This document shows positions 3,684 through 23,981 of a DNA stretch of 32,000 nt, piece by piece (positions within the stretch are counted from its first letter, which is position 1; every line of letters begins with the position of its first letter). The notes below the pieces were generated by a model. It was not told the origin of the DNA. It was given only the letters and a program-made list of their open reading frames with translations, and did no database searches. A program made the translations under genes and the position numbers. Source of the DNA: Acaryochloris marina MBIC11017 (GTDB lineage Bacteria; Cyanobacteriota; Cyanobacteriia; Thermosynechococcales; Thermosynechococcaceae); the NCBI RefSeq assembly GCF_000018105.1, contig NC_009933.1, positions 1 through 32,000 on the forward strand, written 5' to 3'.

Positions 3684-4246
3684 AAAAATGTTGGCAGTTG
3701 TTGCTATTCTTCAACAGAGAAAACTTGCATAAATATTCCATGCAAAAAACGGCCAACTCTCTAACAGAAGTTGATCGACTCCCTGCACTTTACAAGTGTT
3801 GACACAGAGTATTTATATGGGGAAGCTGGAATTAATTTAATTATTATAAAAAGAAAATAAATGAAATACAAGTAAATTTTCTTAAAAAAGAATTTTAATA
3901 AATCACAGCCTAACTGGGTGGAATCTATCAGAGATACTGATCAATCGGTAGTGGGTCAAACAATGTGGGTTTGCTCAACCGATAGGGAGTTGAGTTGTTT
4001 TATTTCTCCCTGCAATGTCCTTTATGTAGTCATCCAAAGATCTAAAAACATGACAAGATCAGCTAAGGTATTCACCGCTAACGCAGCTTGCACTGTCAAC
4101 AAATCTTCAAGTTAGTGGAGCTATACTCCCCGCTGTTTGCGGCGAAGAAATGTGATTGCTATCCAAATCTACGGTTTGGGAGCAAATCGTATTCCATACT
4201 TCGACTGCTTGCAGCAGGGTAGATGATTAAGGATTGCACTTGTTCA

Positions 4247-9637: not shown

Positions 9638-9778
9638 AAAAACCAGAAAAACTGCGTTTGCCCTCAAAGTTGGTACAAACCCAAGTGATGGCGGTTAGCC
9701 GTATCCGGGTGGACTCCCCCCACAGAAGCCTCCAAAAGCCCTCTTAAACCCTCTCCCCGTATAGGTTTCTTGCAGGTT

Positions 9779-9909
9779 GGGTACCAGAAGGGTACCACAG
9801 GGGTGCCAGCCGGGTACCAGCAGGGTACCAACAGGGCAACGTTAGGGTACCAAGGCCAACCAACAGGGTACCACTAGGGCAACGCTTGGGTACCAGAAGG
9901 GTACCAAAA
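9779..9909 (+). promoter_or_regulatory. parC-like centromere: eleven 11-bp phased iterons (GGGTACCA core)
   Basis: Units start at 9779, 9790, 9801, 9812, 9823, 9834, 9845, 9866, 9877, 9888 and 9899. Eight carry GGGTACCA, one GGGTGCCA and two GGGCAACG. The array lies directly upstream of the actin-like ATPase gene. Confidence 0.6.
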
Positions 9910-9985: not shown

Positions 9986-11011
9986 ATGGAAACTGAATCA
10001 ATCGAAGCGATCGTGATCGACCTGGGGACATCCCTCACGAAAGTTCTGTACTACCAACAGGGGCAATATCACTTCTTTGCTCAATCGAGTTCCGTCCTAG
10101 AGCTAGACCATCGCAAGTATCAACAACATGCAGCTCACCCCCAGACCAAGACCCATGCCATCTGGACTGAAGGGGCGGGCTATCTCGTGGGGCGAGGGGC
10201 CTCTCAACCCTATGAAGAAGTGGACCTCTCTCAAACCAAAGCCACTTCAGCCATCGCTAAGGTACTCGCCGCAATCGGAGAAATCAAAGACCGGGTGAAC
10301 AGTGACAAGGCCATCAAACTGGAGAACGTCATCCTGTTGCTTCCCCTCAAAGAACGCAAAGAATATGAAACCCTAAAGACTGCCATCGTTAAAGCACTCT
10401 ATGGATTTGGGTTCAACGGCAAGACCACAAAGTTTTGGGTCGGACGGTTCAATATCCAATATGAGGGGTATGGCATCACCACGATTTCAACGGAAGAACG
10501 AGCAGCCTTCGCAGTCTTTGGTCAGAAAGATTTGACCATTGGGGCCATGAATCAGGGAGACTTAACCCCAAATATGAGTCAAACCCTCGTGGGTTGGGGC
10601 ATGTCCAAAGTCCTTGAAGAAGTGCAATACACCTTTGAGTCGGATGTGTATGGGGCCAAGTGCGTCTACTCCTATAACCAACGCCGCACCAACCTCAAGA
10701 AACTGATTCCCGCCGAGAAAGTTGAATTTGTCTCCGCTTCCATAGACCGGGCGTTGTCTTCGTCCTGGTATCAAATTGAGCGTAAATTGGATTCCTCCCA
10801 AGCCCTGATGGATGCCGTCACCATCTACGTCACCGGGGGCAGTTCTCAGCTCTGGCGCAAACAGCTCAAAGGGGTCTATGGTCGGCGGCTGAATTGCCTA
10901 GATGGCATCGCGAGAGAAATCGCAGAGACATTCCCCCAATTGGACAAAGACCCCATGATTCTGAGAATGGCTGATGCCTATCTGACGATTAGAGGAATGG
11001 TGGCCGCATGA
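9986..11011 (+). CDS. Actin-like segregation ATPase (ParM-like)
   Basis: IVIDLGTSLTKV (phosphate-1-like) and YVTGGSSQLW (adenosine-motif-like). Iterons lie upstream, and an ATGA stop/start overlap links it to the small RHH-like gene downstream. Confidence 0.6.
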   Translation: METESIEAIVIDLGTSLTKVLYYQQGQYHFFAQSSSVLELDHRKYQQHAAHPQTKTHAIWTEGAGYLVGRGASQPYEEVDLSQTKATSAIAKVLAAIGEIKDRVNSDKAIKLENVILLLPLKERKEYETLKTAIVKALYGFGFNGKTTKFWVGRFNIQYEGYGITTISTEERAAFAVFGQKDLTIGAMNQGDLTPNMSQTLVGWGMSKVLEEVQYTFESDVYGAKCVYSYNQRRTNLKKLIPAEKVEFVSASIDRALSSSWYQIERKLDSSQALMDAVTIYVTGGSSQLWRKQLKGVYGRRLNCLDGIAREIAETFPQLDKDPMILRMADAYLTIRGMVAA

Positions 11012-12454: not shown

Positions 12455-12489
12455 TTTTCAGTTTCTAGAGAGATTCTATATTGCCTAAC
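12455..12489 (+). promoter_or_regulatory. Conserved promoter-like element, copy a
   Basis: TTTTCAGTTTCTAGAGAGATTCTATATTGCCTAAC: -35-like TTTTCA, 16-nt spacer holding heptads AGTTTCT/AGATTCT 11 bp apart, -10-like TATATT. Lies 16 nt before ATG 12505. Confidence 0.45.
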
Positions 12490-15133: not shown

Positions 15134-15628
15134 TCATCTCAGCCTGATCCTCGATCCAATACCAGCCCCCGGAACCTGCCCAGCGGCGAGCGTCTTCTCT
15201 TCTTTTAGCATCGTCACCGATAGACCCGCATTGCCATTCTCAAACTGCTCGGAGACTTCCCGCCAACCTAGCTCCCGGTAAAACCTTGCAGAGCTGACCC
15301 TAGCGTTAGACCAAATCGGCCTTGCTTGATTGGACTCTTGCAAATCCTCAAGCAAGTATCGGATCAGTCCTGTGCCAATGCCCTGATTTCTCCAGCCTGG
15401 AGCTGTCGCCATTGCTCTAAGTCGCCACGCAGGTTCTCCGTGCCAGGTTGAGGGAATGAGGGTAGCGCAGCAGATGATTTCTCCATGCTGGTGTATTGCC
15501 CCATAATGACGGGTTTCCTGGTCTTGGTCTTCTGCAAAGATGACCTCAGCGATAGGCAAACCTGGCCGTAAAACTTGGTGGCGAAGTTTGAGGATATGAT
15601 CTGCGGTCGTCCTGGTGAGGGTGATCAT
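15134..15628 (-). CDS. GNAT-family N-acetyltransferase (intact copy; carries protospacer-like 15494-15525)
   Basis: Motif A RLRAMATAPGWRNQGIGTGLIRYLLE; 164 aa. Confidence 0.85.
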   Translation of the reverse strand: MITLTRTTADHILKLRHQVLRPGLPIAEVIFAEDQDQETRHYGAIHQHGEIICCATLIPSTWHGEPAWRLRAMATAPGWRNQGIGTGLIRYLLEDLQESNQARPIWSNARVSSARFYRELGWREVSEQFENGNAGLSVTMLKEEKTLAAGQVPGAGIGSRIRLR

Positions 15629-16713: not shown

Positions 16714-17382
16714 ATGATTTGGCGATCAAGATTGCTATTACTCACTTTTAGCAGTATTGTCTTAACTGGCAATATTCAGCTTCAATCAGTCAGAGCCGCC
16801 AACATTAAATATGACTTCACAGTAGATTTTCCACCATTACCTTTCCGACAGCCTTTGCAAGGCCAGAAAGGAGCTGGATTTCTTACCATAGATGATACTT
16901 CTCAGCCGATTTTCTCAGATACTAGGAGTGGTATTCCTCTTGATTTTTATGAAGTTGAGCAGCTAAATTTTAGTCTTCTAGGACAAACATTTACCAAGCA
17001 GGATGACATAGCAGCCAATAGACCATTACAACGCTTTCCACTTGTCGCGTTTCAAGGTGAACGACTTCAAGGTCTTGACTTTGCTGTAAACCGAAAAAGT
17101 CGAACAGGGCTTGGATTCATATTTCAAGTGGACACTTTAAGTTTGTCAGATGAATTTTTCTCACCCTCAGATGGAGATTTTACTGGTAATATCGGCGCTA
17201 TTGTAGGTCCTGGTTTTTCAAGGAGTATTGTTGCTGCTCAAGGTTCTGGACTATCACTTGGGCGCGTAAAATTTAGGCGAGTTCCTCTAGATGATGGTGC
17301 CGTAAGCATTGTTTTAAGTATCTTCCTAAGTTCCCTGATCGTTGTATATAGGCAACGTAAACAACAACAACCATTACCCTGA
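16714..17382 (+). CDS. Secreted protein with C-terminal TM anchor plus basic tail (PEP-CTERM-like sorting-signal shape)
   Basis: Signal peptide MIWRSRLLLLTFSSIVLTG. C-terminus VPLDDGAVSIVLSIFLSSLIVVYRQRKQQ. Purine-rich SD-like stretch upstream (GGGGGGAAATAAGG). Confidence 0.65.
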   Translation: MIWRSRLLLLTFSSIVLTGNIQLQSVRAANIKYDFTVDFPPLPFRQPLQGQKGAGFLTIDDTSQPIFSDTRSGIPLDFYEVEQLNFSLLGQTFTKQDDIAANRPLQRFPLVAFQGERLQGLDFAVNRKSRTGLGFIFQVDTLSLSDEFFSPSDGDFTGNIGAIVGPGFSRSIVAAQGSGLSLGRVKFRRVPLDDGAVSIVLSIFLSSLIVVYRQRKQQQPLP

Positions 17383-17507
17383 TACGCCATGCAACTTCCT
17401 CGTGCCAGGTCGAGGAAATGAGGGTGACGCAGCAAATGATTTCTCCCTGCTGGTTTAATCCCCCATAATGCCGGGTTTCATTGTCCTGGTCTTCTGCAAA
17501 GATGACC
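17377..17507 (-). pseudogene. GNAT acetyltransferase remnant (approx codons 28-72), truncated at 17507 by a transposon end
   Basis: Reads QVIFAEDQDNETRHYGGLNQQGEIICCVTLISSTWHEEVAWRIR versus the intact gene's EVIFAEDQDQETRHYGAIHQHGEIICCATLIPSTWHGEPAWRLR. DNA identity to 15416-15546 stops at 17507. Confidence 0.8.
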
Positions 17508-17635
17508 TGTCCATTATTTCTTTGTGTGCACAGCTTTAAGGAATTAGATGAACAATTTATGAATTTGCGTTGTTTCGATAATTAGCAGATAAAGAAAATA
17601 AAAATCTCCAGTTTTAAAGTTTTATATGCACAGCT
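17508..17635 (+). mobile_element. Tn7-like/CAST-like transposon end, copy 1 (terminus TGTCCATTATTTC)
   Basis: ~91% identical to 22079-22205. Begins exactly where GNAT homology stops. The 13-bp terminus has a perfect inverted copy at 22007-22019. Confidence 0.55.
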
Positions 17636-17673
17636 CCTTAATTTTTCATACCTAAATGAAAGGAACGTCAGCT

Positions 17674-17709
17674 CTTTCAACCCCTAGTACTTGTTGACAG
17701 CCATTGCAA
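17674..17709 (-). repeat. Solitary CRISPR-like repeat (type V-K-like 3' end)
   Basis: Minus strand reads TTGCAATGGCTGTCAACAAGTACTAGGGGTTGAAAG. It shares the GTTGCAATG... start and ...GGGTTGAAAG end with the repeats at 22252-22362. Confidence 0.45.
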
Positions 17710-17737
17710 AAATTACTGAAGTTAATCCAATCAATCC

Positions 17738-18037
17738 AAAAGAATCAGACTTTGACTTGGCCTTGAGGTTCTGGGGTTCCCCCTTGCTCGGGGGCAATTT
17801 AGTAGCTGCCACGACAGGTTTATCCTGTATTCTCAAACTAGACGCGGTGGCCTAGTTTAAGAACATTGCTCCCGGCATAAGGTGCGACCTTACCACCACA
17901 CTCAGACAAGTCCGAGTAGAAGCGGACAACTACTTGCATGTGAACACGAACATTTGTGAAACACATGGGCACTGGAAAGTAATGAAACTGGACCTTCATT
18001 TATCACAAATACTTTGATGCACCTGCGCGCGATAGTT
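17738..18037 (-). ncRNA. Cas12k-type tracrRNA homolog, apparently full length
   Basis: Minus strand holds colinear blocks resembling the ShCAST tracrRNA as I remember it: TAAATGAAGGTCCAGTTTCA, ACTTTCCAGTGCCC, GGTAAGGTCGCACC, and GTCGTGGCAGCTACTAAATTGCCCCCGAGCAAGGGGGAACCCC. AACCCC...CCTCAA is complementary to GGGTT/TTGAGG of the nearby repeats. Confidence 0.55.
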
Positions 18038-18126
18038 TTTATTCTACTCCTGTCGCTAAGACCTTCTCAGGCTATTCATTAAACGAAGTAAATCAAACTT
18101 TGAAAAAGACTTAACTCACCTGCCTA

Positions 18127-21100
18127 TCAACGATTTGATGCCTTTATTGCTTGTCGGCATACATCTAAATTATTTTGAACTGCGGCAGTATCGGGGTGTT
18201 CGTTGCCCAAGAGCTTCTGTGTCATCTCCAAGGCTTGTACATAGAGGGGTTCGGCTTCGCTGTACCGTCTTTGGTAGGCGTAGAGGTATGCCAAGTTATT
18301 AAGGCTTTGAGCGACATCGGGGTGTTTGTTGCCCAAGTGTTTCTGTCTCATCTCCAAGGCTTGTACATAGAGGGGTTCGGCTTCGCTGCACCGTCTTTGG
18401 CAGGCGTAGAGTCCTGCTAGGTTATTGAGGCTACTCGCGAGAAAAGGATGTTCGTTGCCCAAGAGCTTCTGGTTAATCTCTAGGGCTTGTTTGTAGAGGG
18501 GTTCCGCCTCCCTATAACGCCTTTGATTGGAATAGATTAATGCCAAGTTATTGAGGCTACTCGCGACATCAGGGTGTTCATCCCCAAATAGCTGCTGTCT
18601 CATCTCTAAGGCTTGTTTATGGAGGGGTTCCGCCTCCTCATAACGCCTTTGGTTTCTGTAAAGTTCTGCTAGGTTATTGAGGCTATTTGCTACATCGGAG
18701 TGCTCATGGCCCAGTAGCTTTAGTCTCATTTGTAGGGCTTGTTTATAGAGGGGTTCCGCCTCCTCATAACGCCCTTGGTCATCTAAAAGTCCAGCCAAAA
18801 CATTGAGACTTTGAGCGACATCGGGATGTTCATTCCCAAATAGCTTCTTTCTCATCTCTAAGGCTTGGATAAAGAGAGGTTCTGCCTCCGCATAACGTCC
18901 TTGGTTATCGTATAGTGTTGCCAGGTTATTGAGACTTTGAGCGACATCGGGGTGTTCATTCCCAAATAGCTTCTGTCTCATCTCTAAGGCTTGGATAAAG
19001 AGAGGTTCTGCCTCCTCATAACGCCCTTGGTTGTCGTAAAGGTTGGCCAGGCTATTGAGGCCTTGAGCGACATTGGGGTGTTCATTACACAATAATTTCT
19101 GGAATATTTTCAGTGCTTGAGTACAGAGGGGTTCTGCCTCCTTATACCGTCCTTGGTTGCAGTAGAGGTTTGCCAGGTTACTCAGGCTAGCAGCGACATC
19201 GGGATGTTCGTCACCCAATAGTTTATGGAATATTTCCAATGCTCGAGTATAGAGGGGTTCGGCATCCAAATACTGCTCTTGCAAGTAATAGAGAGCTGCT
19301 AAATTATTCAGACTCTTAGCGACATCGGGATGTTCATCACCCAATAGTCTTTGTTTCATTTCCAATGATTGGATAAAGAAGGTTTCAGCCTCTGCATAGC
19401 GTCTTTGATGGCCGTAGATTGTTGCCAGGTTACCAAGGCTTTTTGCGATATTGGGATGTTCATTGCCCAATAGCCTCTTGTACATATTTAGAGCTTGGGT
19501 ATTGAGAGATTCTGCCTCCTCATAACGTCCTTGGTTATCGTATAGTGTTGCCAGGTTATTGAGACTTTGAGCAATATCGGGATGTTCATTGCCCAATAGC
19601 CTCTTGTACATATTTAGAGCTTGGATATTGAGAGATTCTGCCTCCTCATAACGTCCTTGGTTATCGTATAGTGATGCCAGATTCGAGAGGCCAAGAGCGA
19701 AATCGGGGTGTTCGTTGCCCAAGAGCTTCTGATACATCTGCAACGCTTGCAAATAGAGAGGTTCTGCCTCCTTATAACGTCCCTGGTCTGTATAAAGGTT
19801 TGCCAGGTTATTGAGACTTTGAGCAATATCGGGATGTTCATTGCCTAATAGCCTCTTGTACATATTTAGAGCTTGGATATTGAGAGATTCTGCCTCCTCA
19901 TAACGTCCTTGATAGTAATAGAGGGCAGCCAGGTCATTAAGACTAGTAGCAGTATTTTTATGCTCACTACCAAATTTATGTTGACACTGTTTGAGACATC
20001 TTTGCCTCCAAGGCAATGCTAAATCATAATTACCTTGTCCTTCATAAAATCGACCGATACCGACATAAGGCCAAATCAATTCATCATCACTGAGATGGTC
20101 AATCCATTGTCTGATGAGTTCCTCGAGATGAGGAATGCTGCCTTGTATCTCAGCAATTACATCAATCGTTGATCTGCCATCAATCCTCTGAGCAATACCA
20201 ACCATTGCATTGCAATAAGCCGTTTTGAGGGATTCCCCCTTTTCAGTAAGCTCATCCAATTTGAGTCGAAAGAACTCCTGCACAATTTGATGAAGTTGAT
20301 AGGTGCCCTTTCCTATTCGCTTGAGAAGGTTCCGCTTCAATAACCCTTTATTTCTAGCCTTTACGATTTCCCTGACAGATGTCTCTGGCAAACAAGATTC
20401 AACATGCTTCCACGGGATAGGAGCTATAGAAAATATTCCTAACAAACAGGCTAATTCTTTCTCAAAATCCTTAAGTTTCTTCCAACTCAACTCCAATGCT
20501 GCAGCAACTCCAAGTTGGGCTGTCATGCCGTCTTCTCTCTCACATAAAGCTTCAGCATGTAGCCGCATTGATTCGAGTTCTTGGATTAAATCGTGGATGG
20601 TTAGATCTTGGTCGTTAGACAGGTATCGTCCTAATAGTTCCAGGCCTAATGGCAGATTACCCACCCAAGCACACAACGATTTAGCATCCTCTAGTTGAAT
20701 TTGAATTCGATCTTGTCCAACTAAGGATCCCAGTAGTTCTAACGCACTTTCATTATCGAGTTCCTCCAGGCAAAGAGAGCGGACAGACCGACCAAAATCA
20801 AGTCGGGTGGTGATCAGGGCTTTAAACCGTGGGTTCCATAGGGGAAGACAGGAGGCAACAAGCTCATACTCAACTACATCGTCAACAACGATTAAGACCT
20901 CCCCTTTGGGCCATCGTTGCCAAATGAAACTGACCTGGGCCTTTGCTTCGAGATCATCTGGGGGTTTCATTCCCAGATGGCTTTTAGAAAAATCAATGAT
21001 TTGAGTGGCGATTTCTTGATCTCGTGACCGTAGCCAACAAATCCCACCTGGGTAAATCTTCTGGCTTAAGGACCGTTGAGCATATTCCCAGGCCAGCTCA

Positions 21101-21288
21101 GTTTTCCCAATCCCTCCCATCCCTTCAAGAGCAGTGATGGCGATTCGCTGGTTACTTTGCAGTTGCTCATGCAGTTGGTTGATCTGGGAGTCTCGACCAA
21201 CGAAGGCAACAGCGCCACTTGGAGGGAGGTTATTTGGTGTATCAGTTGGGGGATGTAACTTTGTCCGGTCCCAGTCGGACGACTCTAG
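18127..21288 (-). CDS. NB-ARC (STAND) NTPase with ~15 KLC-type TPR repeats; frame open upstream to the in-frame TGA at 21289-21291
   Basis: ...NLPPSGAVAFVGRDSQINQLHEQLQSNQRIAITALEGMGGIGKTELA (P-loop). 42-aa TPR units GNEHPDVAQSLNNLA.LY..QGRYEEAEPL. The first ATG/GTG/TTG after the TGA (21120) falls inside the P-loop. Confidence 0.8.
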   Translation of the reverse strand, partial: LESSDWDRTKLHPPTDTPNNLPPSGAVAFVGRDSQINQLHEQLQSNQRIAITALEGMGGIGKTELAWEYAQRSLSQKIYPGGICWLRSRDQEIATQIIDFSKSHLGMKPPDDLEAKAQVSFIWQRWPKGEVLIVVDDVVEYELVASCLPLWNPRFKALITTRLDFGRSVRSLCLEELDNESALELLGSLVGQDRIQIQLEDAKSLCAWVGNLPLGLELLGRYLSNDQDLTIHDLIQELESMRLHAEALCEREDGMTAQLGVAAALELSWKKLKDFEKELACLLGIFSIAPIPWKHVESCLPETSVREIVKARNKGLLKRNLLKRIGKGTYQLHQIVQEFFRLKLDELTEKGESLKTAYCNAMVGIAQRIDGRSTIDVIAEIQGSIPHLEELIRQWIDHLSDDELIWPYVGIGRFYEGQGNYDLALPWRQRCLKQCQHKFGSEHKNTATSLNDLAALYYYQGRYEEAESLNIQALNMYKRLLGNEHPDIAQSLNNLANLYTDQGRYKEAEPLYLQALQMYQKLLGNEHPDFALGLSNLASLYDNQGRYEEAESLNIQALNMYKRLLGNEHPDIAQSLNNLATLYDNQGRYEEAESLNTQALNMYKRLLGNEHPNIAKSLGNLATIYGHQRRYAEAETFFIQSLEMKQRLLGDEHPDVAKSLNNLAALYYLQEQYLDAEPLYTRALEIFHKLLGDEHPDVAASLSNLANLYCNQGRYKEAEPLCTQALKIFQKLLCNEHPNVAQGLNSLANLYDNQGRYEEAEPLFIQALEMRQKLFGNEHPDVAQSLNNLATLYDNQGRYAEAEPLFIQALEMRKKLFGNEHPDVAQSLNVLAGLLDDQGRYEEAEPLYKQALQMRLKLLGHEHSDVANSLNNLAELYRNQRRYEEAEPLHKQALEMRQQLFGDEHPDVASSLNNLALIYSNQRRYREAEPLYKQALEINQKLLGNEHPFLASSLNNLAGLYACQRRCSEAEPLYVQALEMRQKHLGNKHPDVAQSLNNLAYLYAYQRRYSEAEPLYVQALEMTQKLLGNEHPDTAAVQNNLDVCRQAIKASNR

Positions 21289-21711
21289 TCAATTCTGAAT
21301 ATTGATAGTTTCTGCTTGGTTTACTACTCCACCAGAAATCTTATTTTGATAATTTGTCCCACCATAGTTATTTTGAACCTGGCTACTGTTGTCTTCTATG
21401 ACATGCAAATTGATTTCATGGGCTAACTGCTGAATCTCTTTAGCAAAGTCCTCAGACTCTAACATCTCCACATTCAAATATGAGATGACCGCATTCAAGG
21501 CTTCAGTATTGCCTGCATCTGCTTTTTGGAGAGCGGCTTCAGCTTTCTCTTTCCCTTTGAATTTTGACCATATTTTGGTCCGTAGTTGATCAATTAATGC
21601 ATAAGCTGATGTTGCAAACTTTTTCCCAGTTTCTGAACCAGCGGCTTCAATGGCTTTTTGAAAGGCCAATGAGACAATGGCTGCTGCTGTGAAAGTCAAT
21701 GGTTCAGTCAT
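21289..21711 (-). CDS. N-terminal helical domain plus Q/N/G-rich linker of the STAND protein, ended by an in-frame TGA
   Basis: MTEPLTFTAAAIVSLAFQKAIE...QVQNNYGGTNYQNKISGGVVNQAETINIQN*. Same reading frame as 18127..21288. ATG 21711 lies within the ORF that opens at TTG 21780. Confidence 0.7.
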   Translation of the reverse strand: MTEPLTFTAAAIVSLAFQKAIEAAGSETGKKFATSAYALIDQLRTKIWSKFKGKEKAEAALQKADAGNTEALNAVISYLNVEMLESEDFAKEIQQLAHEINLHVIEDNSSQVQNNYGGTNYQNKISGGVVNQAETINIQN

Positions 21712-21823
21712 AGCACTTAGAATAAAGGCATCCAATAGATTATCAGGTGATTTTCTAGGATTTACGCTCACCTTCAGCAAGTTTTGAGAATCAGTTGATC
21801 AATCGAGAATCGGCTGATGGGAA

Positions 21824-22019
21824 GAAATAGTGCAACTAATTCCTTAAAGAATTTATTTTTCTCTCAGAAATAGTGCATCCATCTCTTGAAAAATCATTCT
21901 TGAGTATCATTACCTATAAATCAGTAAATCACTTTCTGAATATAGTTTATAGCGTTTCAAAGTTGTGCAGCTATTTCTATAAATTGCTCATTCTTGTGCG
22001 TTTAGCGAAATAATGGACA
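21824..22019. mobile_element. Candidate opposite transposon end (terminus ...GAAATAATGGACA at 22019)
   Basis: GAAATAGTGCA-type sites at 21824 and 21867 (+) and 21965 (-). The terminal 13-mer at 22007-22019 is a perfect inverted copy of 17508-17520. CTAATTCCTTAAAG (21836-21849) is inverted relative to 17534-17547. Confidence 0.45.
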
Positions 22020-22078
22020 CTTTTCAAATTCATTAGTTGTTGTACAGTACATCGCTATTTGCACAGATGTACATATTT

Positions 22079-22205
22079 TGTCCATTATTTCTTTATTTGC
22101 ACAGCTTTAAGGAATTAGATGAACAATTAATGAATTTGCGCCGTTTCGTTAATTAGCAGATTAAGAAAATAAAAACCTCCAGTTTTAAAGTTTTAAACGC
22201 ACAAA
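22079..22205 (+). mobile_element. Tn7-like/CAST-like transposon end, copy 2
   Basis: TGTCCATTATTTC... with ~91% identity to 17508-17635. Confidence 0.55.
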
Positions 22206-22251
22206 AGCTCTTCAGAAAATTGAAGAAATCAAAAATTGGGAAGCTGACGTT

Positions 22252-22362
22252 CTTTTCAACCTTTACCAACCCTCAAATGTCATTGCAACCCAGGACCAGG
22301 AAACCCGGCATTATGGGGCATTACTTTCAACCCATACCAACCCTCAAATGTCATTACAACCC
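22252..22362 (-). CRISPR. Mini CRISPR array (repeat-spacer-repeat), type V-K-like repeats; spacer matches the GNAT gene
   Basis: Minus strand: GGGTTGTAATGACATTTGAGGGTTGGTATGGGTTGAAAG / TAATGCCCCATAATGCCGGGTTTCCTGGTCCT (32 nt, 22323-22292) / GGGTTGCAATGACATTTGAGGGTTGGTAAAGGTTGAAAAG. Confidence 0.55.
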
Positions 22363-22520
22363 ACCTTGAAATTAGCCTAGTCCTGGTAAGACTTTGAGCG
22401 ATTAAATTGCGGATCACAATCATATTGAGTGATCTTGGTAAAGAGGCATCCAAAAGCATTAGGGGCTATTTGCCCAAGTCCTTACTCATAGGGGGGGTTG
22501 AAGAATGCGCCAATCCATCT

Positions 22521-22635
22521 AAAGAAATTAGAATTTGATTTGGCCTTGAGGTTCTGGGGTTCCCCCTTGCTCGGGGGCAATTTAAGCGCTGCCACGACAG
22601 GTATTCCTGTATTCTCAAGCTAGTGCAAAAGCCTA
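22521..22635 (-). ncRNA. Cas12k-type tracrRNA homolog, 3' part only (5' part removed at the IS630 junction)
   Basis: ~85-90% identical to 17738-17856. Contains TTGCCCCCGAGCAAGGGGGAACCCCAGAACCTCAAGG on the minus strand. Confidence 0.5.
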
Positions 22636-22732
22636 GTCCTAGATTTTGAAGATAACCCATCAGTTATGCAAAATTGTACAGACATCAGATAGTTTCAGAG
22701 AAACCCTCTTGTTCAAGATCCTTTCTCTGCCA

Positions 22733-23230
22733 ATGCCAACTCCCAAAGCCACTCCTATTGAGCTATCACAGCAACAACACCATTGTTTGCTCCAAATCGT
22801 TCGACAAACCACCAATCCTTATCGCTTGGTGCGTCGAGCGAGCATCATCCTATCAGCCGCCTCAGGCAAAAGTAACACCCAGATTAGCCGTCAATGGCAA
22901 CTCGACCGCAACCAAGTTCGCTATTGGCGTCAGCGCTGGGTAGATAACCAAGAGCGTCTTGCCCTTTGTGAGCAAGTAGACGACAGCAAACCAGCATTGA
23001 ACCAGCAAGTGTTGGCGACCTTAACAGATGCCCCACGTCCAGGTGTCCCACCCACCTTTACCCCAGAGCAGGTGGTCCAAATTGTGGCCATTGCCTGTGA
23101 ATCTCCTCAGAACTCAGCCCGGCCTGTGAGTCAATGGACGCCTGAAGAGATTGCTGATGAAGCGATTAAACGCGGCATCGTCCCTCACCTGTCGGCCAGC
23201 AGTGTGAGACGTTTTTTGGGGAGAGGCTGA
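22733..23230 (+). CDS. IS630 transposase, N-terminal HTH part (orfA)
   Basis: MPTPKATPIELSQQQHHCLLQIVRQTTNPYRLVRRASIIL...; ATG 22733 within the ORF that opens at 22646. Confidence 0.8.
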   Translation: MPTPKATPIELSQQQHHCLLQIVRQTTNPYRLVRRASIILSAASGKSNTQISRQWQLDRNQVRYWRQRWVDNQERLALCEQVDDSKPALNQQVLATLTDAPRPGVPPTFTPEQVVQIVAIACESPQNSARPVSQWTPEEIADEAIKRGIVPHLSASSVRRFLGRG

Positions 23231-23300
23231 GCTGCAGCCTCATCGGAGTCGCTATTGGCTCAATGCTAACCCTGAGGACCCAGAAGCGTTCGAGGCGAAA

Positions 23301-23981
23301 GTGCGCCAGGTTTGCCAACTGTATGAATCAGCAGCTGAACTGGAAGCTCACCAGATTCACCTTGTTAGTACGGATGAAATGACTGGCATTCAGGCGCTTG
23401 AACGACTGCACCCAGACCAAGCTATGCAACCAGGTCAACCGCGTCGTTTGGAATTTGAATATGAGCGGCATGGTACCCTCAGTCTCATCGCCAACTGGCA
23501 TGTGGCTCTGGGAAAGGTGATTGCGCCTTCTATCGGACCCACGCGAAAAGAATTTGACTTTGCCAATCATATTGCCAAGACAGTTGAAACAGCACCGGAC
23601 GATGGGTGGGTTTTTCTGCTCGACCAGCTCAATACCCATCGATCTGCTTCCCTTGTGCGATGGGTCGCTGTCTGTTGCGGTATTGATTCAGATTTAGGCG
23701 TTAAGGGTCAATCTGGTATCCTTCAATCGATGGAAACTCGCACGGCCTTCTTGAGCGACCCCAGCCATCGGATCCGATTTGTTTATATCCCCAAACATAC
23801 CTCCTGGCTCAATCAGATTGAATGCTGGTTTAGTATTTTGGTGCGTCGATTGATTCGTCGAGGAAATTTCACCTCCACGGATGATTTGCAACAGCGCATC
23901 CTCGATTTTATTGAATATTTCAATCACACTATGGCCAAACCTTTCCAGTGGCAATTTAAGGGATTCACGCCGCATGGATAA
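23301..23981 (+). CDS. IS630 transposase, DDE part (orfB; frame open from 23208)
   Basis: The upstream in-frame sequence reads GEAELQPHRSRYWLNANPEDPEAFEAKV. DDE_3-type body (STDEMTGIQ..., LLDQLNTH, NQIECWFS). Needs a +1 shift near T6G4 at 23212-23221. Confidence 0.8.
   Translation: MRQVCQLYESAAELEAHQIHLVSTDEMTGIQALERLHPDQAMQPGQPRRLEFEYERHGTLSLIANWHVALGKVIAPSIGPTRKEFDFANHIAKTVETAPDDGWVFLLDQLNTHRSASLVRWVAVCCGIDSDLGVKGQSGILQSMETRTAFLSDPSHRIRFVYIPKHTSWLNQIECWFSILVRRLIRRGNFTSTDDLQQRILDFIEYFNHTMAKPFQWQFKGFTPHG

Follow-up and report, generated by a model that had tools for sequence, protein, structure and literature searches.

Two short direct repeats on an Acaryochloris plasmid enclose a single spacer, and that spacer closely resembles part of an acetyltransferase (GNAT) gene. 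The locus raises a series of questions: whether the arrangement is a CRISPR array at all, to which family its repeats belong, and what its only spacer was for. The first-pass annotation of the window (the whole stretch of DNA that was analysed, 32,000 nucleotides in length) had proposed that it is a CAST mini-array of the Cas12k-dependent, type V-K kind, equipped with a 'homing' spacer against a gene on the same replicon. The features on which the analysis below draws, numbered from the first letter of the window, are collected in Table 1.

Table 1. Features of the locus and of its surroundings, in order of position; the last four rows list characteristic sequence forms
Feature	Position	Strand	Remarks
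Intact GNAT acetyltransferase gene	15134-15628	(-)	164 aa; Pfam Acetyltransf_1/_7; 100% identical to an A. marina protein
Protospacer in intact GNAT	15494-15527	(+)	31/34; GTG PAM 15491-15493
GNAT fragment	about 17371-17507 (138 bp)	(-)	83% identical to 15409-15546; cut after ...GATGACC
Protospacer in GNAT fragment	17456-17489	(+)	31/34; GTT PAM 17453-17455
Mini-element A	17508-22019		two-ended, 4.5 kb, no transposition or Cas genes
A left end	17508-17632	(-)	terminus TGTCCATTATTTC; abuts GNAT fragment
17 nt after solitary repeat	17657-17673	(-)	AGCTGACGTTCCTTTCA
Degenerate solitary repeat, module A	17674-17710	(-)	TTTGCAATGG...GGGGTTGAAAG; 23/37 identical to R1, 3' end intact
Predicted module A tracrRNA gene, divergent V-K type, full-length	17767-18000	(-)	covariance model and sequence
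A cargo	18127-21780	(-)	NB-ARC/TPR protein of 997 aa starting at P-loop; 163-aa ORF
A right end	21790-22019	(+)	terminus ...GAAATAATGGACA, inverted relative to 17508
Module B, left-end module	22041 or 22079 to 22643		array and tracrRNA fragment
Outer end-site TGTACAGTACATCGCTATTTGCACAG	22041-22066	(+)	B only; resembles canonical V-K terminus TGTACAGT
B left-end region common with A	22079-22203	(-)	92% identical to 17508-17632; inner site TGTCCATTATTTCTTTATTTGCACAG
17-nt unit after R2	22235-22251	(-)	AACGTCAGCTTCCCAAT; place typical of canonical truncated att-guide
Repeat-spacer-repeat array, module B	22252-22360	(-)	repeat family 92% ungapped
CRISPR repeat R2, module B	22252-22289	(-)	38 nt, GTTGCAATGACATTTGAGGGTTGGTAAAGGTTGAAAAG; 3' end GGTTGAAAAG
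Spacer	22290-22323	(-)	34 nt, TAATGCCCCATAATGCCGGGTTTCCTGGTCCTGG
CRISPR repeat R1, module B	22324-22360	(-)	37 nt, GTTGTAATGACATTTGAGGGTTGGTATGGGTTGAAAG; 5' end GTTGTAAT, 3' end GGGTTGAAAG, both of V-K family type
Module B leader, tracr remnant to array	22361-22548	(-)	length and position canonical
Predicted module B tracrRNA, 3' fragment	22549-22643	(-)	89% identical to A; ends at about 22643
IS630-family transposase, two ORFs	22646-23981	(+)	HTH_32, DDE_3, NF033545
Array repeat, short form			GTTGYAATGACATTTGAGGGTTGG
Window tracr tail			AACCCCAGAACCTCAA
Element ends			TGTCCATTATTTC and TGTACAGTACATCGC
GNAT sequence expected after TGACC at a reciprocal junction			TCAGCGATAGGCAAACC...

Architecture of the array

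As first annotated, the array consisted of two repeats of 39 and 40 nt, identical at about 35 of 39 positions, on either side of a 32-nt spacer that matched GNAT codons at 29 of 32 positions. When the repeat boundaries were set by comparison with 35 canonical V-K loci, the two direct repeats (R1 and R2) remained in place, with corrected lengths of 37 and 38 nt and an identity of 34 of 38 positions; two G residues formerly counted within R2 are covered by each of the spacer's external matches and were for that reason given to the spacer. The spacer, which is indeed a near copy of sequence present twice in the window, is 34 nt long in this arrangement and agrees with each of those two sites at 31 of 34 positions. 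Matches to the spacer 32-mer expected by chance amounted to 0.00 (100 shuffles), and no ORF of 80 or more amino acids in the window overlaps the array.

The most elementary objection to such an array is that it is not one, and that the locus represents GNAT sequence duplicated locally, or else a dispersed repeat that has nothing to do with cas loci. The window is without cas genes and Rfam matches nothing in it, both of which lend that objection some weight. Against it, the similarity of the spacer to GNAT halts exactly at the repeat borders, from which it follows that the segment is a bounded spacer and not a local duplication; in addition, the repeat core is absent as a dispersed repeat from genome and metagenome collections (the scan of metagenome contigs returned 0 matches). 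The remaining evidence on this point comes from the repeat ends and from the neighbouring tracrRNA, and is taken up in the next section.

Directly after R2 lies a further unit of 17 nt, AACGTCAGCTTCCCAAT, in the position that truncated att guides occupy in a published scheme for V-K elements (bioRxiv 10.1101/2021.02.06.429022); a comparison of canonical V-K loci shows the same placing of the guide that follows the array. No second match to this unit was found anywhere in the window.

Membership of the type V-K family

A reference set was obtained by scanning 185,579 species-representative genomes with the tracr core query CCCCCGANCAAGGGGGAACCC. The scan returned 38 loci, 35 of them cyanobacterial, including that of Scytonema hofmanni UTEX 2349 (ShCAST), where a 639-aa ORF corresponds to Cas12k. 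Repeats of the family are about 37 nt long, begin with GTYGCAAY, end in (G)GGTTGAAAG and are separated by spacers of about 35 nt, and the window array conforms to this description: its repeats have exactly the ends found in 35 reference loci, ShCAST among them, and the published consensus wkrGGyGGGTTGAAAG (PMC12416283) is matched by the window repeat at 14 of 16 positions. Position is equally in keeping with the family, in that the B array and the tracrRNA share one strand, the array lying 3' and behind a leader of canonical length. The GTTGAAAG of R1 lies at +246 from the B tracr core, as compared with +244 to +257 in most reference loci, and GCGCA and CCGC(A/G) motifs of the B leader align weakly with conserved leader motifs.

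To find the guide-RNA partners of these repeats, 29 canonical tracrRNAs were turned into a covariance model. At module A (17767-17979, minus strand) the whole model is spanned, with a score of 35.6 bits and E = 5e-10; both the long-range stem and the 3' hairpin are retained in the candidate tracrRNA, in which a stretch of 80 nt stands in place of 38 in the consensus. The sequence AATGAAGGTCCAGTTTCA at 18000-17983 is similar to the consensus AAATGAGGGTTAGTTTGAC, and a weak promoter-like site, the sole such match, is found upstream at 18070-18041. At module B (22549-22667) the match is confined to the 3' part with its hairpin, at 17.1 bits and E = 3e-4. Rfam at gathering thresholds gave no match in the window and contains no fitting tracrRNA family, and an exact scan of genome contigs for the window's 22-mer tracr core returned 0 matches. 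The crRNA and tracrRNA genes of the window are predicted genes.

Pairing energies were calculated as well. The duplex of tracr tail and repeat has an energy of -14.5 kcal/mol, against a mean of -14.1 for the canonical loci with their own pairs; this value is equalled by 280 of 2000 shuffles. Duplex tests of this kind have little power: the ShCAST control itself stands at z = -0.2, and a test of the full-length tracr-repeat duplex fails even for ShCAST.

Set beside ShCAST and 34 further loci, the array bears out the earlier suggestion of Cas12k-like repeats, and by sequence the window repeats are to be classed as type V-K (Cas12k-type) CAST repeats. The objection that there is no array is refuted by the borders of the spacer similarity, by the V-K motifs and spacing of the repeats and by their canonical distance from a tracrRNA that the covariance model recognises, and we assign it next to no probability.

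Sibling modules and a mini-element with transposon ends

The predicted guide-RNA genes of the window are divided between two modules, A and B, which to judge by their identity of about 90% are old siblings. A diverged solitary repeat, previously noted at 17674-17709 in the other copy, is present (at 17674-17710) and marks the second copy of the module. The 17 nt that follow it, AGCTGACGTTCCTTTCA, are the reverse complement of the end of the B repeat together with the first 10 nt downstream of it, with one mismatch to the plus strand at 22242-22258. Upstream of the array and of the solitary repeat, on the same strand, the copies share a stretch of 93 nt at 89% identity, which contains CCCCCGAGCAAGGGGGAACCCC; a second shared stretch, of 125 bp (17508-17632 and 22079-22203) and 92% identity, lies downstream of each guide module and ends in TGTCCATTATTTC.

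Around module A these parts form an element in the order left end, degenerate repeat, tracrRNA, NB-ARC/TPR gene, 163-aa ORF and right end. The 13-mer TGTCCATTATTTC recurs in inverted orientation at 22007-22019, beside about 230 bp of repeated end-like sites, so that the element has perfect 13-bp terminal inverted repeats as well as internal repeats. These ends are of the Tn7-like character known from V-K CASTs (TGT termini, repeated TnsB sites, 5-bp target-site duplication): a 3.8-kb homologue on pREC3 of A. marina MBIC10699, which has the same ends around the same two genes and is without tracrRNA or repeat, lies between two copies of the 5-bp target sequence AAAAA. Because of that duplication, such ends can be said to transpose in a Tn7-like manner, and the element family of A to be mobile. 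The right end of A is found, with other flanks, on three other Acaryochloris plasmids (two of them beyond pREC3), and the relatives of the window in general are Acaryochloris plasmids.

The copy of A in the window has no target-site duplication (its flanks read TGACC and CTTTT) and has therefore recombined; a model of simple insertion was dropped on the same ground. A tandem arrangement of target, A and B was also considered and set aside, since the interval that separates the two modules (21 or 59 bp) is neither a duplication nor GNAT sequence.

Module B can be followed on one side as far as about 22643, where the similarity of its tracrRNA to that of A stops and where, at 22646 and on the opposite strand, the IS630 gene begins. 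No cas12k gene is found beyond this point, the IS630 transposase being there, and no terminal inverted repeats of that IS630-family element were found. On its other side B has an outer end-site of its own, TGTACAGTACATCGCTATTTGCACAG, which can also be likened to the canonical V-K terminus TGTACAGTGAC... A guide-directed origin for the position of B was rejected: no GTN-flanked match to either B guide occurs 50-66 bp from the B terminus.

The GNAT target and the geometry of insertion

That the spacer is directed against an acetyltransferase gene on the same replicon, as first proposed, holds at both sites (31 of 34 positions each) and is seconded by the Pfam assignment of the gene to GNAT. The spacer has three mismatches to each window site, one of them, at the site that carries an insertion, falling at position 5. 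The protospacer encodes a conserved protein segment, EDQDQETRHYGA.

What makes the second site informative is its neighbour. The terminus of A at 17508 lies 52 bp after the GTT PAM, in an orientation that fits Cas12k-guided insertion, and the junction can be placed to the base by comparing the intact gene (...AAAGATGACC/TCAGCGATAGG) with the fragment (...AAAGATGACC/TGTCCATTATT) or, in shorter form, ...GATGACC/TCAGCG with ...GATGACC/TGTCCATT. The link between the end of A and the GNAT protospacer is, by this distance and orientation, stronger than was first noted.

The corresponding geometry was reproduced on 23 canonical loci, where a guide of 17 nt follows the last, often degenerate, GGGTTGAAAG. 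This guide matches an inverted protospacer just beyond the array-proximal end, with a GTT or GTC PAM; of the 21 loci that have a GTN PAM, 18 show a distance from PAM to terminus of 57-66 bp (median 61), in agreement with the published homing geometry (bioRxiv 10.1101/2021.02.06.429022). The window site shares the GTN PAM, the inverted protospacer and the array-proximal placing, but its 52 bp fall below that range. Between the terminus and the AAATAAT core the window ends have 8 fewer bases (GACAAATAATTAGTCACTGTACA vs AAGAAATAATGGACA), and this shorter spacing would probably account for the difference. In AcCAST, insertion occurs 49-56 bp from the PAM.

Three other Acaryochloris strains also have GNAT copies, at 7 positions spread over at least 5 plasmids, and further homologues exist. 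The eight alleles compared have 2-5 mismatches to the spacer, and six of the eight have a GTN PAM; no perfect allele was found, and a scan of metagenome contigs with the spacer returned 0 matches. A GNAT fragment on an S15 plasmid, with a GTC PAM and 3 mismatches, is broken 2-3 bp past the position of the window junction, with unrelated DNA next to it; this could be a second, eroded footprint of insertion, or it could be unrelated.

Such observations bear directly upon the homing reading, in which a plasmid-living CAST lineage would use GNAT as its att site in the way that tRNA genes are used elsewhere, and the spacer would be a dedicated guide. The array has a single spacer that matches the very site where a sibling copy sits; the target lies in the conserved segment, on at least 5 Acaryochloris plasmids; V-K elements are known to use att sites other than tRNA genes, namely mutS, mutL and a nuclease gene (bioRxiv 10.1101/2021.02.06.429022); and the break in the S15 fragment falls at nearly the same position. 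Known V-K att guides, however, consist of about 13 + 17 nt and are usually perfect, whereas the unit here is a full repeat-spacer-repeat with a 34-nt spacer and 2-5 mismatches, directed at a multi-copy plasmid gene and not at a tRNA; the separate 17-nt unit AACGTCAGCTTCCCAAT already holds the canonical position of an att guide; and only one of the eight GNAT copies examined carries an element, B itself not being at a GNAT site. The claim of a homing guide, in the form in which it was first made, is not upheld by these features, which suit a plasmid-directed (horizontal) pathway better, and the reading behind it now seems unlikely.

A second possibility is that the spacer is of the ordinary, defence type, acquired through a host type I-D adaptation system, and that the transposon end came to lie nearby by coincidence or by unguided insertion. 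GTN is also the acquisition PAM of type I-D (bioRxiv 10.1101/2021.02.06.429022), V-K CASTs can transpose unguided (PMC11300857), and the copy that bears the spacer and the copy that is inserted are different elements. Such a coincidence would nevertheless have to reproduce orientation, PAM side and distance at base resolution, for which the chance is estimated to be on the order of 1%, and we consider it very improbable.

Missing machinery and the context of the window

Despite the presence of these RNA genes and ends, the proteins that would act on them are absent from the window. No cas12k gene is present (tblastn of ShCas12k found nothing below E = 2), and scans of most of the longer ORFs with Pfam and NCBIfam revealed no tnsB, tnsC or tniQ in the 32 kb. 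The place immediately upstream of the tracrRNA, where cas12k was looked for, is occupied by the TPR gene at A and by the IS630 gene at B. The only transposition genes in the window are those of IS21 (IstA/IstB), ISL3 and IS630, an ORF with a DUF772 transposase domain and a resolvase; the plasmid backbone includes a MobF relaxase and a 341-aa ORF with upstream iterons, and there are no tRNA genes.

Searches beyond the window had a similar outcome. With tblastn of ShCas12k against PLSDB, Cas12k was found on 2 plasmids only (Gloeothece and Calothrix), neither of them from Acaryochloris; among the best 120 of 838 homologues of ShCas12k, a set dominated by Nostocales, there is no Acaryochloris entry; and exact scans of contigs found neither a parent CAST nor a second array. 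Of the original description of the locus as a CAST with a homing spacer, the spacer against GNAT on the same replicon can be kept; the description is not supported as given in that the machinery is absent from the window and the B tracrRNA is truncated. Since cas12k, tnsB, tnsC and tniQ are lacking from the window, the locus could be active now only with the help of proteins provided in trans.

A proposed origin for the locus

Taken together, we think it likely that the array is a V-K CAST mini-array whose sole spacer derives from the plasmid GNAT gene, that a sibling element was inserted by Cas12k guidance, and that the locus is now probably a relic. The array stands in the canonical place between tracrRNA gene and left end, within the degraded copy B. 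The comparisons above show that repeats, tracrRNA and ends are of the V-K family, that spacer, protospacer, PAM and junction have the expected geometry, and that the mini-element family is mobile. By analogy with known systems, Cas12k together with the tracrRNA and a processed crRNA would bind the GTN-flanked protospacer in GNAT, TniQ, TnsC and TnsB would then be recruited, and the element would be inserted, left end first, at a fixed distance downstream. The insertion of A was, we infer, guided by this spacer or by an ancestral form of it in the A lineage; a full CAST elsewhere presumably supplied the proteins in trans, and the spacer would have served a plasmid-directed (horizontal) route and not chromosomal homing. 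Today the locus is probably either a relic or a non-autonomous pair that relies upon a helper.

Several observations weigh against this proposal. The 32 kb lack cas12k, tnsB, tnsC and tniQ, and no Acaryochloris plasmid in PLSDB was found to encode Cas12k. The spacer resides in B and the GNAT-adjacent end in A, whose own array is gone; no perfect allele was found, each window site having its 3 mismatches; A has no target-site duplication, and the end sequences are unlike canonical V-K termini; the insertion distance is short (52 bp, below 57-66 bp) and the B tracrRNA truncated; and the duplex energy of -14.5 kcal/mol, while equal to that of canonical pairs, is no better than that of shuffles.

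A bolder version of the proposal is that Acaryochloris plasmids harbour 'self-addressing', protein-less mini-CASTs, composed of RNA genes and ends only, which borrow their proteins from a helper and are directed into GNAT by a spacer in their own array. The two copies would then complement each other, A providing an intact tracrRNA and B an intact crRNA. We regard this version as decidedly unlikely, with a small chance of being correct.

The interest of the locus lies in what has been reported of V-K elements thus far. One review states that integrated CASTs do not lie next to protospacers matching the spacers of their arrays (PMC11656645), and another that little is understood of the horizontal route by which CASTs enter plasmids (PMC11300857). 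In the window, an array spacer has a protospacer whose PAM, orientation and distance fit the insertion of a sibling in a plasmid gene, and the locus would thus be a natural footprint of the proposed plasmid-targeting route. It also documents V-K parts in Acaryochloris, with divergent tracrRNA and ends, and a mobile mini-derivative that keeps its guide-RNA genes; if a cognate Cas12k exists, it would belong to a compact, divergent system worth testing. Among the papers found, none names both Acaryochloris and Cas12k, and the genus does not appear in the available supplementary files of Hsieh & Peters.

Comparison with known systems

Array-targeting Tn7-like elements (PMC11837452) resemble the present case in that cyanobacterial Tn7-like elements, including some on plasmids, are found by CRISPR arrays. 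Their entry is driven by TnsD and occurs at a fixed position inside spacers, whereas the spacer of the window is uninterrupted and its array lies inside the element, beside its own tracrRNA; an assignment to that family was rejected.

The variant V-K_V2 (PMC12416283) resembles the present case as a V-K lineage with an altered tracrRNA, in which stem-loops are inserted relative to V1 and anti-repeat 2 is changed. It is confined to Nostocales, and its anti-repeat is AACUACCACCCCC where the window has the tail AACCCCAGAACCUCAA; its repeats end in GGTGGTGGGTTGAAAG, those of the window in TTGGTATGGGTTGAAAG. Membership of V-K_V2 is not supported.

Delocalized att-targeting crRNAs near the left end were described by Saito et al. 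2021, as summarised in PMC11656645, and the V-K att units consist of about 13 nt of repeat and a 17-nt spacer, directed mostly at tRNA genes and usually perfect (bioRxiv 10.1101/2021.02.06.429022). Common to these and to the window are a guide near the left end and an inverted protospacer just outside it with a GTN PAM. The window guide, by contrast, is a full repeat-spacer-repeat with a 34-nt spacer against a protein gene on a plasmid, and guide and inserted end are in separate sibling copies.

The closest relatives are the canonical V-K CASTs, with which the window shares repeats of 37 nt, a spacer of about 35 nt, the 3' hairpin and long-range stem of the tracrRNA, the order of tracrRNA, leader, array and left end, the GTN PAM, insertion downstream of that PAM and an array-proximal end that faces the target. 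It differs from them in the lack of cas12k and tnsBCQ in the window; in a much more divergent tracrRNA (canonical tracrRNAs have a mean column identity of 88% to each other, and that of A has about 42 nt extra); in its terminus (TGTCCATTATTTC vs TGTACAGTGAC...) and its distance from PAM to end (52 vs 57-66 bp); and in its host, Acaryochloris, where it lies on a plasmid. The V-K CAST is a known kind of element; what is new here is the host lineage, the divergent tracrRNA and ends, the protein-less derivative, and the match between an array spacer and the site of an insertion.

Cargo and possible promoter of element A

The mini-element A (17508-22019), which lacks transposition and Cas genes, carries an NB-ARC/TPR protein that matches the NCBIfam 'FxSxx-COOH system TPR protein' family with 451 bits (cutoff 300), and that is apparently truncated at its N-terminus, because its first residues are those of the P-loop. 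The 163-aa ORF beside it has no family match, and the two genes travel as a pair on four plasmids. For the tracrRNA of the same element, transcription from the promoter-like site (see table) would begin near position 18030, which is close to the 5' end expected for a tracrRNA that includes the 42-nt insertion.

Features of the window and of related Acaryochloris marina plasmids
Feature	Location	Strand	Remark
11-bp iterons GGGTACCAG...	window 9777-9830 and 9886-9906		immediately upstream of 341-aa ORF
341-aa ORF	window 9986-11011		unclassified; iterons just upstream
17-nt unit AGCTGACGTTCCTTTCA	window 17657-17673	-	directly after solitary repeat of A
Promoter-like site CTGAGA-18-TAGAAT	window 18041-18070	-	consensus match only
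Cargo of A: NB-ARC/TPR protein and 163-aa ORF	window 18127-21780	-	
59-bp stretch	window 22020-22078		from A's right terminus to B's shared left-end sequence
Non-autonomous Tn7-like element, 3.8 kb	L003 5341-9124		A. marina MBIC10699 pREC3
Broken GNAT fragment	L043 about 3700-3800		A. marina S15 plasmid CP064925.1

Sequences shared by element A and module B

The 17-nt unit of A is, with one mismatch, the reverse complement of plus-strand positions 22242-22258 in the neighboring two-repeat array module B, which comprise the 3' end of B's last repeat and 10 nt beyond it. As a consequence of this reverse complementarity, A contains a small palindrome (TGAAAG-N11-CTTTCA). The match could reflect an inversion, or the unit could form a hairpin or serve as a guide; at the position in B where a PAM would lie, the sequence is GGA, not GTN. 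Between the two modules, the 59-bp stretch includes an extra end-site, TGTACATCTGTGCAAATAGCGATGTACTGTACA, with TGTACA at both borders, which may be the true terminus of B or the remnant of a third element.

Plasmid backbone motifs

Five dispersed copies of an approximately 30-nt TCAGTTTCTAGAGAGATTCTATATTGCCTA-like motif (at 12458, 13178, 14315, 15761 and 27228) each lie a short way upstream of a plus-strand ORF, and the motif may be a promoter or operator common to plasmid genes. The iterons, in turn, may form a partition (parC-like) site.

Related elements and reference loci

The pREC3 element shares its ends with A and is flanked by a 5-bp target duplication (AAAAA); a small ORF and a TPR gene are all that it carries, and it lacks both a tracrRNA and a repeat. 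On the S15 plasmid, the GNAT fragment displays a GTC PAM and a protospacer with three mismatches to B's spacer, and is broken 2-3 bp past the position of the window's junction (where the left terminus of A abuts the GNAT fragment). The DNA joined to it has no similarity to the window or to the other Acaryochloris loci compared, and the fragment may be a second, eroded footprint.

Among canonical Cas12k reference loci, a few (L012, L037 and L040) show either no more than 23-26 bp between the att protospacer and the closest TGTACA terminus, or another end-like site lying in between, an arrangement pointing to CAST ends that are nested or in tandem at tRNA att sites.
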